Below are positions 12,734 to 48,201 of a DNA stretch of 64,000 bases, piece by piece (position 1 is the first letter of the stretch; each line of letters opens with the position of its first letter). The notes beneath the pieces were generated by a model. The model saw nothing but the letters and a program-made list of their open reading frames with translations. It was not told the origin of the DNA and ran no database searches. Origin of the DNA: Acholeplasmataceae bacterium (GTDB lineage Bacteria; Bacillota_I; Bacilli_A; Acholeplasmatales; Acholeplasmataceae); contig OY775910.1 of assembly GCA_963675245.1 (NCBI GenBank), forward strand, positions 1,408,001-1,472,000, in the 5' to 3' direction. Both the position numbers and the translations under genes were made by a program.

Positions 12734-13831
12734 TTACTCATAAACTGTTTTATTACGACCACTTGCTTTTGCTTTATACAAGTTCGTATCAGCTCGAAAG
12801 ATAATATCTTTAACATCATCATTAGGTGAAATGTTGGTCACACCAATACTAATTGTAGCAACATGCTTTTCTTTAGCGGTTATTTCTGAAACTCTTTTTC
12901 TTAATCTTTCAGCAAGATCAAATGTTGATTTTTCACTAAAAAACTTAGTTAAAACAATGAATTCTTCACCACCATACCTACCAATTACATCATTATTAGG
13001 TAATGAATTTTTAATAGTATCAGCGATTTTCTTTAAAATATCGTCACCATATTGATGTCCCCAGGTATCATTAATTGTTTTAAAGTGATCAACATCAATC
13101 ATCATTAAAGAGATTTTTTCATCGGTCTTTTTAATTAAATTTAGTTTGTCTTCCAAAACACCAAAAAAAGTTTGACGTTGATAAACACCAGTTAAATGAT
13201 CTATAGATGATAATTCTTCCAATAACGTATTCTTGACTTCTAAACTCTTAACTAAATTAATATTTTGATCTCTCTCATATATATAACGATTAAGAGTAAG
13301 ATGACTTACGATGACAAGACTGATACCAGCTGCCAATACACCGAAAATATTATCAATCAAGACTGAGCTTTCATCTGTATAAGTAATAACCAAATTAGGA
13401 TAATGAAAAGAAAGAATCATGATAGAAGTATAAATAGTAGATAGTAAGATGGTTGTAAATATAGTACTTTTCATTGATTCAGTATATAAGGCAAAATAAG
13501 CAATAATCATTACGAAATATAGAGGAGAAGCACCGTTATAACCACCGTTAATAAAATAATTGAAGGGTATATATAACAAAGCAAATAAATAAATAATAAC
13601 TAACGCAAACTTTTCAATTTTTTCAGGTAATAGTGATATGAAAATTATACACATTAGCATGATAACGAGATTTGGTATATTCATCCAAAAAGGAATGTCA
13701 AAGAAAAAATTCATGACAAATGCTAACGAAGACATCAGAAGTCCAGTCAGAATATAAATAACCGCCAGTTTTTGTCGGTAACTTAACTCGCGATAATTAA
13801 ATATTGGTAATGATTTTAATGATTTCATCAA
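12734..13831 (-). CDS. Membrane-bound diguanylate cyclase (GGDEF domain)
   Basis: About six N-terminal TMs; DHLTG, DVDHFKTINDTWGH, RYGGEEF, KASGRN. Confidence 0.92.
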   Translation of the reverse strand: MMKSLKSLPIFNYRELSYRQKLAVIYILTGLLMSSLAFVMNFFFDIPFWMNIPNLVIMLMCIIFISLLPEKIEKFALVIIYLFALLYIPFNYFINGGYNGASPLYFVMIIAYFALYTESMKSTIFTTILLSTIYTSIMILSFHYPNLVITYTDESSVLIDNIFGVLAAGISLVIVSHLTLNRYIYERDQNINLVKSLEVKNTLLEELSSIDHLTGVYQRQTFFGVLEDKLNLIKKTDEKISLMMIDVDHFKTINDTWGHQYGDDILKKIADTIKNSLPNNDVIGRYGGEEFIVLTKFFSEKSTFDLAERLRKRVSEITAKEKHVATISIGVTNISPNDDVKDIIFRADTNLYKAKASGRNKTVYE

Positions 13832-14038: not shown

Positions 14039-14381
14039 TGGTGGAGATGAGGGGATTTGAACCCCTGTGCAAGACACTTCCTAAAATACTTTCTACATGT
14101 TTAGTCCGTTTCTGTATTCACCTAGCAACTTAAACGAACAAAGCTTTACTAGACTAGCCTATTTAGTTCTTCATTGAGCCTAGGCTACTCAATGGGATAG
14201 CTTGCTAAGTGTTAGGCTTAAATAGCATCACAAGCAAATGCTAAATCAGCTCGCTAGTCCTTTTCTTAGGCAGCGTAAGTTAATTGAGTGTTTCCGGTTA
14301 TTAAAACCTCGGCTTTTTTACATGAGCAACCATGACATGCTTATATTTAATTTCATGCCGTGACGAATCCAGAACATCCCC
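14039..14381 (-). ncRNA. ssrA: tmRNA (transfer-messenger RNA); tag peptide (A)GNTQLTYAA*
   Basis: 5' GGGGATGTTCTGGATTCG; 3' T-arm GGGGTTCAAATCCCC and CATCTCCACCA acceptor end; tag ORF 14295-14266 after ATAACC; promoter TTTACA-17-TATGAT upstream. Confidence 0.95.
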
Positions 14382-14451
14382 AGCGAACATATCATACATC
14401 AAAAGAAATGAAATGTAAAGATATGTTCTTGATTAAGTGGTAAAATAATTG

Positions 14452-14636
14452 AATATGCTGTTAAAATGCAATGAATTAGTAATAAAATAGCAAATCGGAC
14501 ATAAACGCCCTACTAAAAATGCTTTAAATATCATATGATAATTAAGTGGGGGGATGTCCGGGGGGATATTTCGGTATCCACGCATTCTCCAATATTATGT
14601 GTGATACCAGAGGCATTGCTCGCAATGTCTCTTTTT
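14452..14636 (+). ncRNA. Candidate structured non-coding RNA, 6S-RNA-like rod with A-rich internal bubble
   Basis: Extended -10 TGgTAAAAT 14438-14446; nested pairings AATAT/ATATT, AATGC/GCATT, TCGGACAT/ATGTCCGG, CCCTACT/AGTGGGG; own terminator 14609-14636; no long ORF. Confidence 0.55.
14609..14636 (+). terminator. Intrinsic terminator of the candidate ncRNA
   Basis: AGAGGCATTGC-tc-GCAATGTCTCT followed by TTTT. Confidence 0.8.
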
Positions 14637-14701
14637 GTTTTTGATAGATTGATATACCATATAATGGTATAATAAATTAAACTAACAAGGAGTGTGTATA
14701 T

Positions 14702-15355
14702 ATGTTAAAATCGATCATCTTTGATATGGATGGCACAATACTCGATACAATTCAAGATCTTACGACAAGTGTTAATTTTGCACTTAAAAAATATGATCTA
14801 CCTTTAAAATCAATATCTGAGGTGAAATTGGCAGTAGGTAGTGGGGCAAAAGAACTCATCAGACGTGTTATAAAAAATGGTTATGATAACCCTATGTTTG
14901 AGGAGATTTATCAGACCTATCAAACGTATTATGATGCACATCGTATGGTTAAAACTGCACCTTATCCCGATATATTGGCACTTTTACGTCAATTGAAGTA
15001 TGATGGGTATAAGCTAGCAGTAGTTTCTAATAAACATGATTATTTAGTAAAAACACTAAATGACCAGCTATTTGAAGGATTATTTGAAGTTGCTGTAGGT
15101 GAAACCAAGGAAAGACCACTTAAACCAGCTCCAGATGTGATATATGATGTATTAAATATGTTGAATATCACAGTTGAAGAAGCTGTTTTTGTTGGCGATT
15201 CTAATGTCGATATTATTACAGCAAAGAACGCCGGTATGACATCAATTGGTGTCACCTGGGGTTTTAGAGGATATGAAGAACTTAAAGATGAAGGGGCTAC
15301 CTATATTATCGATAAACCACTTCAATTGCTAGATACAATAAAGGAGATTAAATAG
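14702..15355 (+). CDS. HAD family hydrolase (phosphoglycolate phosphatase-like)
   Basis: FDMDGT motif I, VSNK, KPAP, VGDS..D; own TGgTATAAT promoter and AGGAG RBS. Confidence 0.9.
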   Translation: MLKSIIFDMDGTILDTIQDLTTSVNFALKKYDLPLKSISEVKLAVGSGAKELIRRVIKNGYDNPMFEEIYQTYQTYYDAHRMVKTAPYPDILALLRQLKYDGYKLAVVSNKHDYLVKTLNDQLFEGLFEVAVGETKERPLKPAPDVIYDVLNMLNITVEEAVFVGDSNVDIITAKNAGMTSIGVTWGFRGYEELKDEGATYIIDKPLQLLDTIKEIK

Positions 15356-15356
15356 T

Positions 15357-17672
15357 ATGTCACTGATTAAATTAGAGAATATAGCAAAGTACTATAAATC
15401 AGCAGAAACTGTTTCAGTTGGTATGAAACATGTCAGTCTCAATTTTGATATTGGTGAATTTGTCGCGATCACTGGTGAATCTGGTGCAGGGAAATCTACC
15501 TTATTAAATGTTTTATCAGGACTTGATAAATATGAGGAAGGCGAATATTTTCTTAATGGCGAAGAAACGTCACATTTTACCATTCGTGATTGGGAGAAAT
15601 TTAGAGGTGCGTACATCGGCTTTGTCTTCCAGGATTACAATATCATTGATAGTTATACGGTATTACAAAACGTTTTATTAGCCTTAGAAGTACAGGGTTA
15701 TGATCCTAAAACAAGGAAACAAAGAGCGTTAGAATTAATTGATCGTGTTGGATTGACGAGCCACAAGAGTCATAAAGCTTCTAAACTTTCTGGTGGTCAG
15801 AAACAACGATGTGTGATTGCGAGAGCACTTGCAAAAGACTGTCCGATTATTGTTGCTGATGAACCAACTGGTAACCTTGATTCAAAATCGGGAGAACAAA
15901 TTATCAATTTACTTCATGAGGTATCAAAAGATAAATTAGTGATTATTGTAACGCATGATTATAATCACGTCGAACAATATGTCACAAGAAAAATTTTGAT
16001 GCATGATGGCGAAGTAGTTGAAGATAAAAAAATTAAATCAACAGAAATCTTAAAAGCCAAAGAGGTACCTCATATTAGAAATATGAATGTCCTCATGTTA
16101 TTAAAGTTCGCTTTTAGAAATTTATTCTCAACACCCAAAAAACTTATATTTATAATGTTAATGCAAATCATCGTGGTGGCTGTGTTTACAGTTGTCTATA
16201 CCAATCAGATTAGTCAAATCAGAGAAACTGGTCTTGATTCAAGTTATACCCAGATTTATCCGTCAGTACCGGAAACAAGATTAGTTGTTGAAAAACGTGA
16301 TGGTACGCCTTTTACAGACGCAGAAATAACATCTATTAATCGTAATCGATATGTGAATAATGTTTATGAATATGGATTAAATTTCTTTAATGAACGTACG
16401 ATTTATTATGGCATAACGGAATATGAATATACATATTATAGAGAATTAGGAGATACAGATACATCCAAAACGTTGATTCAAAGTGATGTTGATGGTAATC
16501 TTCCAGTTGAAATGAACGAAGTAGTTCTTACGAATTATCGATATTATGACTTCCAAATTGGTCAAACCATTGAATTATTTGCAGGTCCAAACAACTATTT
16601 TGGTCCTTTTGGTAATGACGTTGATGTCTATTATGGTAACAACTCATTTAGTTATGAATCAATTGGTGAATTTGAAATTGTTGGATTTGATAACTTAAGT
16701 AGAGATGTGATATATTTTTCAGAAGCATTTTTAACACAAAACTATTATGATGACGCATATTTAGATAACGATCCACTCATTAATCCATATATTGATCAAA
16801 GTGCCTATAGTAGATTGTTTCAAACGATCTACGATAGTATGGAGATTACAGTTGATGATGTAACATTCAGTTATTTTTCAACTGATGTGAATAATACATA
16901 TGATGTGGTTATTAATTCATATGAAGATACGACCGAAACCGTCATGGAACACAATGATTTTACATTCTCATTCATGGATCCAACATATGGAATGTATACG
17001 ACATCACTGACTAATTTATCAGTTTATCGTAGAGGACCCTTATCGTTTAATTCATATATAACGATTGATGAAGAGATTATGCATTCTGTCATGAATGAGA
17101 TGATGACTCATTTTGAAGAATTCTATACATTGGAAGTTCCAAAATCAGTTGTATCAGTTAGTGTCGATGGTTATCATAATGGTACAAGATTTATCGAAAC
17201 CATTGATCAATCCGTTTATAAAGTCTATTATCCAGCTAATTTAGCTGATCCGATGCGTGATTTTCTTGTTTTCTTGTATAGCGTATTGGCTATTTTCTTC
17301 TTGGGTATATTTGGTATGTTCTTATATTCTATCGTACATGCGGTCACCAAAAATGTTATGGCAGCTAGAAAGCGAGATTTCGCTATTTTCAGATCGGTAG
17401 GAACAAGTGAAACGACATTAGGAAGACTAGTTGTTCTAGAACAGATCATCATGAATGTTGTAGCGTTTGTGATTGTTGTAGTAGGTATTCAAATATTAAG
17501 AGCAAACGTATCACTAATCAGAGCAGAATTATCTTACATGGAATTACAAGATTATATTATATTACTTGTTGCCTTTGCATTATTCGGTGCATGGTTAGGC
17601 TTAAGATTTAATAAGAAGGTCTTTAAACAAACCGTTATCGAGTCATTAACATCAAGTAAGGGTGGTGAGTAG
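15357..17672 (+). CDS. ABC transporter, fused ATPase and FtsX/MacB-like permease
   Basis: Walker A GESGAGKST, LSGGQ, ADEPTG; one TM, large extracellular loop, three C-terminal TMs. Confidence 0.9.
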   Translation: MSLIKLENIAKYYKSAETVSVGMKHVSLNFDIGEFVAITGESGAGKSTLLNVLSGLDKYEEGEYFLNGEETSHFTIRDWEKFRGAYIGFVFQDYNIIDSYTVLQNVLLALEVQGYDPKTRKQRALELIDRVGLTSHKSHKASKLSGGQKQRCVIARALAKDCPIIVADEPTGNLDSKSGEQIINLLHEVSKDKLVIIVTHDYNHVEQYVTRKILMHDGEVVEDKKIKSTEILKAKEVPHIRNMNVLMLLKFAFRNLFSTPKKLIFIMLMQIIVVAVFTVVYTNQISQIRETGLDSSYTQIYPSVPETRLVVEKRDGTPFTDAEITSINRNRYVNNVYEYGLNFFNERTIYYGITEYEYTYYRELGDTDTSKTLIQSDVDGNLPVEMNEVVLTNYRYYDFQIGQTIELFAGPNNYFGPFGNDVDVYYGNNSFSYESIGEFEIVGFDNLSRDVIYFSEAFLTQNYYDDAYLDNDPLINPYIDQSAYSRLFQTIYDSMEITVDDVTFSYFSTDVNNTYDVVINSYEDTTETVMEHNDFTFSFMDPTYGMYTTSLTNLSVYRRGPLSFNSYITIDEEIMHSVMNEMMTHFEEFYTLEVPKSVVSVSVDGYHNGTRFIETIDQSVYKVYYPANLADPMRDFLVFLYSVLAIFFLGIFGMFLYSIVHAVTKNVMAARKRDFAIFRSVGTSETTLGRLVVLEQIIMNVVAFVIVVVGIQILRANVSLIRAELSYMELQDYIILLVAFALFGAWLGLRFNKKVFKQTVIESLTSSKGGE

Positions 17673-48000: not shown

Positions 48001-48050
48001 AAGTAACCTCATTGTATTATTGAATAAAACGTGTTATTATTGATAATGAT

Positions 48051-48129
48051 CACTACGGGGAGCAAAAGCTGAGAGGACATGTGTCGACCCGTTGAACCTG
48101 ATCTGGATGAAACCAGCGGAGGGATAGTG
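48051..48129 (+). promoter_or_regulatory. TPP riboswitch
   Basis: CACTA-CGGGGAGC..GCTGAGAGG..GACCCGTTGAACCTGATCTGGATGAAACCAGCGGAGGGA-TAGTG; hairpin plus T run at ~48153-48182. Confidence 0.93.
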
Positions 48130-48201
48130 TAATAGTCTTTATTAACTATCAATTTCTTTGGGCATCCATAGAAATTTTTTTATTTCTAAGGAGGAAAAGA
48201 A

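Follow-up and report, generated by a model that had tools for sequence, protein, structure and literature searches.

A putative peptide-signal-dependent promoter and a predicted short structured transcript beside the tmRNA gene of an Acholeplasmataceae bacterium

The window, i.e. the whole stretch of 64,000 nt that was analysed, contains the gene encoding tmRNA (ssrA; 14039..14381, minus strand; Rfam RF00023, 152.9 bits, E 3.3e-60) and, divergent from it, a gene encoding a HAD-family hydrolase (14702..15355, plus strand; Pfam HAD_2, E 1.5e-38), which lies downstream of and outside the unit described here. The two genes are separated by a gap of 320 nt (14382-14701) that was correctly described before as ORF-poor, since it does not hold any ORF of more than 50 amino acids. 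One full-length relative of this spacer was found, in the genome G006, the sole close relative, with an identity of 68%. A promoter-like site for ssrA (TTTACA-17-TATGAT; 14391..14419, minus strand) was found by a promoter scan with 10 of 12 matches and is kept in G006. The HAD gene has, as had been proposed, a promoter of its own: its extended -10, TGGTATAAT (14665..14673, plus strand), is identical in G006, and in the relatives that were read the HAD gene is likewise preceded by a TGnTATAAT-like site. Between the two promoters the terminator scan found a strong intrinsic terminator with a 10-bp stem, a GCTC loop and a T-run (14609..14642; stem-loop at 14609-14632), on the plus strand only, as had been noted earlier. 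It is conserved in G006, where one pair of the stem is changed on both sides and two pairs are changed on one side (G-U to A-U, A-U to G-C and U-A to U-G). A riboswitch or attenuator of the HAD gene was ruled out because the terminator precedes the gene's own conserved promoter, and a prophage att site was ruled out since the element is located on the 5' side of ssrA. Further out, a gene encoding a GGDEF diguanylate cyclase (12734-13831, minus strand) is located just past the 3' end of the tmRNA, and a gene encoding a 771-aa protein with an N-terminal ABC ATPase domain (15357-17672, plus strand) directly follows the HAD gene. A search of the window against Rfam revealed only the tmRNA and a TPP riboswitch (48046-48141, plus strand; 71 bits, exceeding the Rfam cut-off), and in the region between tmRNA and HAD gene only chance-level matches were seen at E-values of up to 10.

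The preliminary description of this spacer had proposed an independent RNA of ~145-185 nt which starts behind an extended -10 and folds by nested complementary blocks into a 6S-like rod. All strings quoted there were located in the sequence at the positions reported (TGGTAAAAT at 14438-46, AATAT/ATATT, AATGC/GCATT, TCGGACAT/ATGTCCGG, CCCTACT/AGTGGGG and the palindrome TATCATATGATA at 14529-40). The extended -10 TGGTAAAAT (14438..14446, plus strand) is indeed present as a candidate upstream promoter, in a part of the spacer that is specific to the genus, but it is absent at the aligned position in G006. The plus strand of 14452-14640 (189 nt) folded better than its shuffled versions (z -3.98, 0/200), and the minus strand of the same region was not above its shuffles (z -1.45); with this value and no terminator on the minus strand, a minus-strand RNA was ruled out. 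The MFE structure of the 189-nt RNA is made of hairpins in a row, without a closing stem. The outer helices AATAT/ATATT and AATGC/GCATT are not used in it and their sequences are changed in G006, and a conserved closing stem around a central bubble, as expected for a 6S rod, was not found. With -22.7 kcal/mol (z -4.17, 0/200 shuffles), the central hairpin (14494-14562) stands well above chance in this genome, but it is not kept in G006: there the counterpart reached -8.6 kcal/mol (z +1.03, 170/200 shuffles), no better than chance, and 4 of 15 pairs are broken without any compensation. The terminator end of the unit is conserved, the proposed 5' half is not.

A search with the 6S model RF00013 gave no match at E<=10, neither in the region nor in the whole 1.63-Mb genome, and control genomes were positive in the same search. 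That 6S RNA is hard to see in this lineage was borne out: none of 41 genomes of the order reached the RF00013 cut-off, and the 6S role is formally vacant, with no canonical 6S RNA detectable here or in these 41 genomes. Sub-threshold matches to RF00013 (E 8e-4 to 0.015) were seen in other genera of the order, in G034 (L281), G037 (L282) and G019 (L283). The element is present in only 2 of the 10 genomes of the genus, which is not the distribution of a housekeeping RNA. Six genomes have the tmRNA-HAD spacer without the element; there, tmRNA and HAD gene are divergent neighbours as well and the spacer is only about 140-230 nt long. The remaining two are draft genomes that give no call on its presence. 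Because there is no RF00013 match, the helices are not conserved and the presence is too patchy for a housekeeping RNA, the 6S label fails, and the stretch is not a 6S RNA. What it has in common with 6S RNA is that it is small and structured, looks non-coding, has a terminator of its own and occurs in a genome without an annotated or detectable 6S RNA, but it differs from 6S RNA by the missing model match, by the missing rod with bubble or closing stem, by a size of about half the length once the promoter is subtracted and by its patchy occurrence. What stands is a separate plus-strand unit between the ssrA and HAD promoters with a conserved terminator, for which the earlier boundaries were wrong; since this unit matches no Rfam family, the alternative that had been offered, a new sRNA-like unit, holds.

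Inside the former 5' half lies a pseudo-palindromic stretch of 20 nt, TCGGACATAAACGCCCTACT (14495..14514, plus strand), with the motif T-N-GGACATATACGCCCTA-N-T. It had been read as the 5' strand of the central hairpin, but what is conserved here is an operator box ahead of the likely start; the stretch is, therefore, probably a DNA signal and not RNA. The box is followed by a spacer of 19 nt (14515..14533) and the -10 hexamer TATGAT (14534..14539), which sits inside the palindrome formerly regarded as apical. There is no -35; the sequence at that position is TACTAA. Relative to the predicted start, the box spans about -51 to -32, with its centre near -42. In this position and without a -35, its geometry is that of class II activator sites. 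In G006, 17 of the 20 positions are identical to the box of the window, which is better kept than the spacer after it, whose sequence is poorly conserved.

The first lead to a wider distribution came from a covariance model of the elements of G000, the genome of the window, and G006. In 151 genomes it found only those two, two matches to the box in the sister genus g31 and two terminators; the g31 matches were weak, and two of them were the block AAATCGG(A/C)CATATACGCCCTACT, again located between tmRNA and HAD gene. When up to 2 mismatches were allowed, the box pattern turned up in 34 of the 307 genomes searched in the order; the reversed pattern matched ~18 genomes (hand count) and, therefore, some of the 2-mismatch matches are chance. 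In total 43 loci were read, 30 from the pattern search and 13 more, and three places with 2 mismatches were left out. Among these, 27 boxes have the strict core T-N-GG-N-C-N-TA-N-A-N-GCC-N-T-R-N-T, and in 24 of the 27 a -10 (at least 4/6 matches, with A2 and T6) follows exactly 19 nt downstream, the same distance as in the window. The three exceptions are one -10 at 20 nt, one TTTAAT and one chance match within a gene. In its TAGG...CCTA form the box is symmetrical at 7 of 9 pairs, in the window at 5 of 9 (hand count). Eleven of the 27 boxes are located between a divergent regulator gene and a gene encoding a small secreted protein, and this arrangement was seen in several genera. A second copy of the element was not found in its own genome. 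A scan of the genome collection with TGGGGGGATGTCNGGGGG gave 61 loci, of which only G006 was relevant and the rest were G+C-rich chance matches, and a metagenome scan for the spacing from box to G-run gave at least 118 matches, of which 80 loci were reduced to 11 by a filter (G+C <0.42 or a box-like flank), none of them genuine.

The regulator encoded beside the boxes is a protein of ~310 aa whose gene is divergent from the peptide gene. No Pfam or NCBIfam model reached its cut-off with this protein. A profile of 32 family members matched Rgg2 (4yv6, E 8.8e-5) and ComR (5fd4, E 7.5e-4), and the AlphaFold (AF2) model of the regulator (pLDDT 91.9) gave PlcR, ComR, Rgg3, PrgX and Rgg2 as best full-length matches in Foldseek (PlcR 3u3w with E 4.3e-6; Rgg3 6w1f; Rgg2 6w1a; ComR 5jub). 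From these profile and structure matches it follows that the regulator is an RRNPP-type peptide receptor. The genome G000 encodes three paralogues of this regulator (L133-L135), all outside the window, at 636641-637540 (minus strand), 810207-811106 (minus strand) and 283455-284336 (plus strand), with an HTH at the N-terminus and a TPR-like peptide-binding domain at the C-terminus. Of the three, named R1, R2 and R3, the last two have divergent neighbours encoding precursors with a signal peptide, of 53 aa ending in VDFDDPDFPPPVNIRLY and of 44 aa ending in NDFPPELPIPPQN, each with its own variant of the box, and the neighbour of R1 encodes an acidic 50-aa peptide without a signal peptide. The variant of R2, TATGACATATCCGCCGTAGT, is followed after 19 nt by TATTAT, ahead of the gene encoding the 53-aa secreted peptide, and is identical in G006; compared with the box of the window it has 14 of 20 matches. 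Another variant of the box is located ahead of an ORF of 149 aa, at genome position 1034088. The regulators that adjoin consensus-type boxes elsewhere have homologues in this genome that are only 29-32% identical. When their HTH parts were compared with those of the paralogues, R1 and R2 came out about equal, with 28-31 identities over 62-69 aligned residues.

From the promoter, a small transcript of ~95 nt (14546..14640, plus strand) is predicted, with a start 7 nt past the -10 and an end at the terminator. It folds into three parts with -37 kcal/mol (z -3.98): first a 5' part rich in G (GGGGGGAUGUCCGGGGGG), then a hairpin whose loop is CU-rich, and finally the terminator. The G-rich segment GGGGGGATGTCCGGGGGG (14548..14565, plus strand) is a twin Shine-Dalgarno-like run. 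Within the 1.63 Mb of the genome there is just one other instance of its part TCCGGGGGG, in the 5' UTR of the R3 precursor gene, where it stops 4 nt short of the ATG. The second hairpin (14573..14608, plus strand) exposes, in the MFE structure, the CU-rich apical loop UCUCCAAUAUU (14586-14596). In G006 a CU-loop hairpin was found by eye with a shifted register, comprising a 9-bp stem (GUAUCCGCU/AGUGGAUAC) and the loop CAUCCCCGAAUA. The form of the RNA in this genus is known from these two sequences only; for the two, RNAalifold prefers a pairing of the first G-run with the CU stretch, and their comparison revealed one compensatory pair outside the terminator. The mean column identity of the RNA core with G006 is 81%, against 68% for the whole 320-nt spacer. 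In the public RNA runs X1-X3, coverage came from the tmRNA of relatives only and no contig extended over 14390-14760, which is no evidence either way. A scan of 1560 start regions with RNAduplex gave long, implausible duplexes and no target. The second-ranked region was the start of R2 (G000, 637520-637545), in which GCCCCCAUGGACA at the start codon is nearly complementary to UGUCCGGGGGG of the RNA of the window; the C-run is missing from the R2 orthologue in G006, so this complementarity is probably chance.

Seven of the eight genomes of the sister genus g31 also have the box at this locus, between tmRNA and HAD gene, followed by an RNA of ~130 nt that ends in a terminator and is composed of a 5' hairpin, a long central hairpin and the terminator. 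The 5' hairpin is found in all seven, with three different stem sequences. The central hairpin is formed by UUAGUAUGG with CCAUNCUAA and by the G-run GUGGAGGGGGA with a CU-rich strand. In these helices 94.8% of the cells are paired, compared with 42-54% in slid controls, and 8 pairs are changed on both sides versus 2.5 in shuffles, a value that none of 500 shuffles reached. Pairing and covariation provide good evidence for selection at the RNA level on the region that follows the box. Rfam has no family for the RNAs of the sister genus. They have the motif AGTGG(A)GGGGGAT in common with the RNA of the window. A covariance model of the g31 RNAs scored the RNA of the window with 7.1 bits (E 1.7) and, in 151 genomes, found the seven training genomes and two weak matches (E 0.011 and 0.016) without recovering the window. 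The RNAs of the window and of g31 thus share locus, promoter and the motif AGUGG(A)GGGGGAU, without a demonstrable common structure. The same loci bear on the long RNA that had been proposed before: in g31 the distance from the -35 of ssrA to the box is only ~25 nt, which leaves no room for a promoter like TGGTAAAAT, and in two g31 genomes the box ends in CCCTAGT and mispairs with AGUGG.

Six of the eight g31 genomes have 2-3 boxes. In each of the two g31 genomes examined for it (G057 and G044) one homologue of the regulator was found, and the boxes on the regulator side and on the tmRNA side carry the same genome-specific variants in g31 (TCGGAC, TCGGCC, TGGGAC). This is consistent with one protein reading both boxes, a pattern that common descent would yield as well. 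In eight genomes of two genera (g31: L106, L108, L109, L112, L137, L140 and L142; g5: L114) the distance between the mature 5' end of the tmRNA and the start of the box is 62-63 nt (by eye), so that a single box has its centre at about -72 relative to ssrA and close to -42 relative to the small RNA or gene. The g5 genome has a protein-coding gene in place of the small RNA. A co-regulation of tmRNA by this box is possible in g31 and g5. In the window the distance between box and tmRNA is ~114 nt and, therefore, the dual placement does not hold there. Short box-driven transcripts with a terminator were also seen away from tmRNA, in G075 (L121, 1501-1635) and G008 (L122, 1501-1619); the G075 transcript, for which Rfam has no family either, carries twin G-runs (GGGGGGUAAUGGGGGA) like that of the window, the G008 transcript does not.

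The box family, the fixed distance to the -10, the link to an RRNPP-type regulator, the terminator and the structured RNA at the same locus of the sister genus are best accounted for by a peptide-signal-dependent promoter of the Rgg/ComR/PlcR-like type that is followed by a short structured transcript of ~95 nt beside tmRNA, a reading to which we assign a probability of roughly 0.55. A dimeric RRNPP-type peptide-sensing regulator would bind the box at 14495-14514, and the bound box near -42 would activate the promoter that has TATGAT (14534-39) but no -35. The RNA would then start near 14546 and stop at the terminator near 14640, and could be the output of a peptide-controlled regulon for cell-cell signalling, comparable to AimR acting on aimX or ComR on comS/comX. 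Most likely the transcript would act as RNA, via its Shine-Dalgarno-like G-runs and its anti-Shine-Dalgarno-like CU loop, on a putative target. The stability of the hairpin between box and G-run in this genome is, under the promoter model, left as a coincidence or as an inverted repeat at the DNA level.

The transcript could instead be the mRNA of a micro-peptide of 7-16 residues, i.e. of a leaderless pheromone-like peptide that is made under the same box and gives private feedback on the RRNPP regulator. We consider this unlikely. A small ORF of 16 codons encoding MSGGIFRYPRILQYYV, whose translation is doubtful, is located at 14554..14604 (plus strand), with the G-run abutting its ATG; the counterpart in G006 encodes MSGGIMYPLIPE and this upstream ATG stays in frame over a 3-nt indel. 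Through TCCGGGGGG, which it shares with the genuine precursor gene of R3, the 5' part of the RNA is similar to the Shine-Dalgarno/start module of that gene, and in G006 the sequence GGGGGG-CATT-ATG opens, with the same spacing and at the homologous place, the peptide MYPLIPE. Therefore, the 5' part looks as if it was derived from the ribosome-binding module of a precursor. Further, the peptides are proline-rich like the C-termini of the precursors, a hand reading gave 5 synonymous third-position differences to G006, and 6 of the 11 differences to G006 within the ORF are at third codon positions, as a coding sequence would give. However, this last count is not significant (own estimate, binomial p about 0.1), the ATG at the position used by the precursor is CGG in the window and the remaining ATG abuts the G-run without a spacer, and the two peptides are unequal in length and have different ends. 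Of 7 g31 genomes, only 4 have ATG as the codon that follows the G-run (one has ATC, two have ATA); the third base of this codon covaries with the helix partner, and the peptide lengths in g31 range from 7 to 26 residues.

Somewhat less probable still is that the unit is a decaying remnant of the duplicated promoter and 5' end of a pheromone precursor gene, kept beside ssrA and functionless now. The patchy presence in 2 of the 10 genomes of the genus, the resemblance to the 5' UTR of a precursor gene, the loss of any ORF of precursor length and the lack of a cognate consensus-type regulator in this genome (with homologues at 29-32% identity) would fit such a remnant. Against it, box (17/20) and RNA core (81%) are better kept in G006 than the 320-nt spacer (68%), the terminator stem has a compensatory change, and 7 of the 8 g31 genomes have this arrangement of box and small RNA, with covarying helices, at the corresponding locus. 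An RNA of ~185 nt that starts from TGGTAAAAT (14438) and uses the box as hairpin strand, be it a 6S-like mimic of an open promoter or another long sRNA, is very improbable in the face of the lost hairpin, the unconserved TGGTAAAAT and the g31 loci, in spite of the extended -10 in the sequence, the high stability of the central hairpin in this genome and the formally vacant 6S role.

Several features of the proposed peptide-controlled promoter are known from other systems. ComR/ComS (XIP) of streptococci, with ComR-boxes at comS and comX, is similar in that the regulator is an RRNPP protein with HTH and TPR-like parts, ComR 5jub being among the top structural matches, and in that several promoters belong to one regulator, one of them beside its own gene. 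According to PMC6703854, ComR-type promoters consist of a dyad stretch followed by a spacer of fixed length to the -10, and they share with the promoter described here a pseudo-palindromic box, a fixed distance to the -10 and the lack of a -35. The system here differs from ComR/ComS by the sequence of the box, by a spacer of 19 nt that is not notably T-rich in this genome, by peptide genes that encode signal-peptide precursors and are thus closer to PapR than to ComS, by a distal target that is a small terminator-ended transcript and not a sigma-factor gene, and by the lineage, Acholeplasmataceae. PlcR/PapR and Rgg/SHP provide the best structural matches of the regulator and, like the system here, combine a dyad operator with a gene for a small peptide that is divergent from or adjacent to the regulator gene, whereas the regulator here stays below every Pfam and NCBIfam cut-off. 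The operator is presumably unrelated in sequence to the PlcR box.

Small RNAs under such a box have a parallel in the CiaR-dependent csRNAs of streptococci, which are terminator-ended and have as promoter the repeat box of the regulator at a fixed distance from the -10. They carry sequences related to Shine-Dalgarno and anti-Shine-Dalgarno sequences, and their regulator is the response regulator of a two-component system. Unlike the unit described here, they do not involve an RRNPP receptor, and they have no sequence relation to the RNA of the window. AimR, the receptor of the arbitrium system of Bacillus phages, is a member of the RRNPP family. In the AimR-AimP-aimX system, as described in PMC8464984, PMC6458997 and PMC8612738, a peptide-sensing transcription factor activates the short downstream unit aimX under the control of a secreted peptide, similar to what is proposed here. 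The arbitrium genes are contiguous on a phage, whereas the unit here is chromosomal, far from the regulator genes and located between ssrA and the HAD gene.

A literature search at the level of listings and abstracts gave no work that links RRNPP with Acholeplasma, Tenericutes or Mycoplasmatota. If this holds, the box and its promoters would be the first definition of an operator and regulon for peptide quorum sensing in that lineage, and they would add an RRNPP receptor that drives a small RNA, beyond peptide, sigma-factor or virulence genes. A false 6S candidate is removed and replaced by a proposed, testable circuit of a 20-nt operator, a promoter of fixed geometry, three candidate receptors with secreted peptides and a small RNA. 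As a general lesson, a conserved operator together with a downstream inverted repeat can mimic an RNA hairpin. More tentatively, Acholeplasmataceae, the wall-less relatives of mycoplasmas, may run chromosomal RRNPP circuits with an AimX-like riboregulator back-to-back with ssrA; if so, one bound regulator could, in g31 and the one g5 genome, couple population density to a small RNA and to the capacity for trans-translation.

The secreted proteins encoded beside the regulators have 2-4 tandem copies of DF(E/H/D)NSG-x-PE(W/Y) at ten loci (L107, L110, L111, L113, L115, L119, L125, L136, L138 and L139). These DFENSG-like repeat proteins may be multi-copy pheromone precursors.
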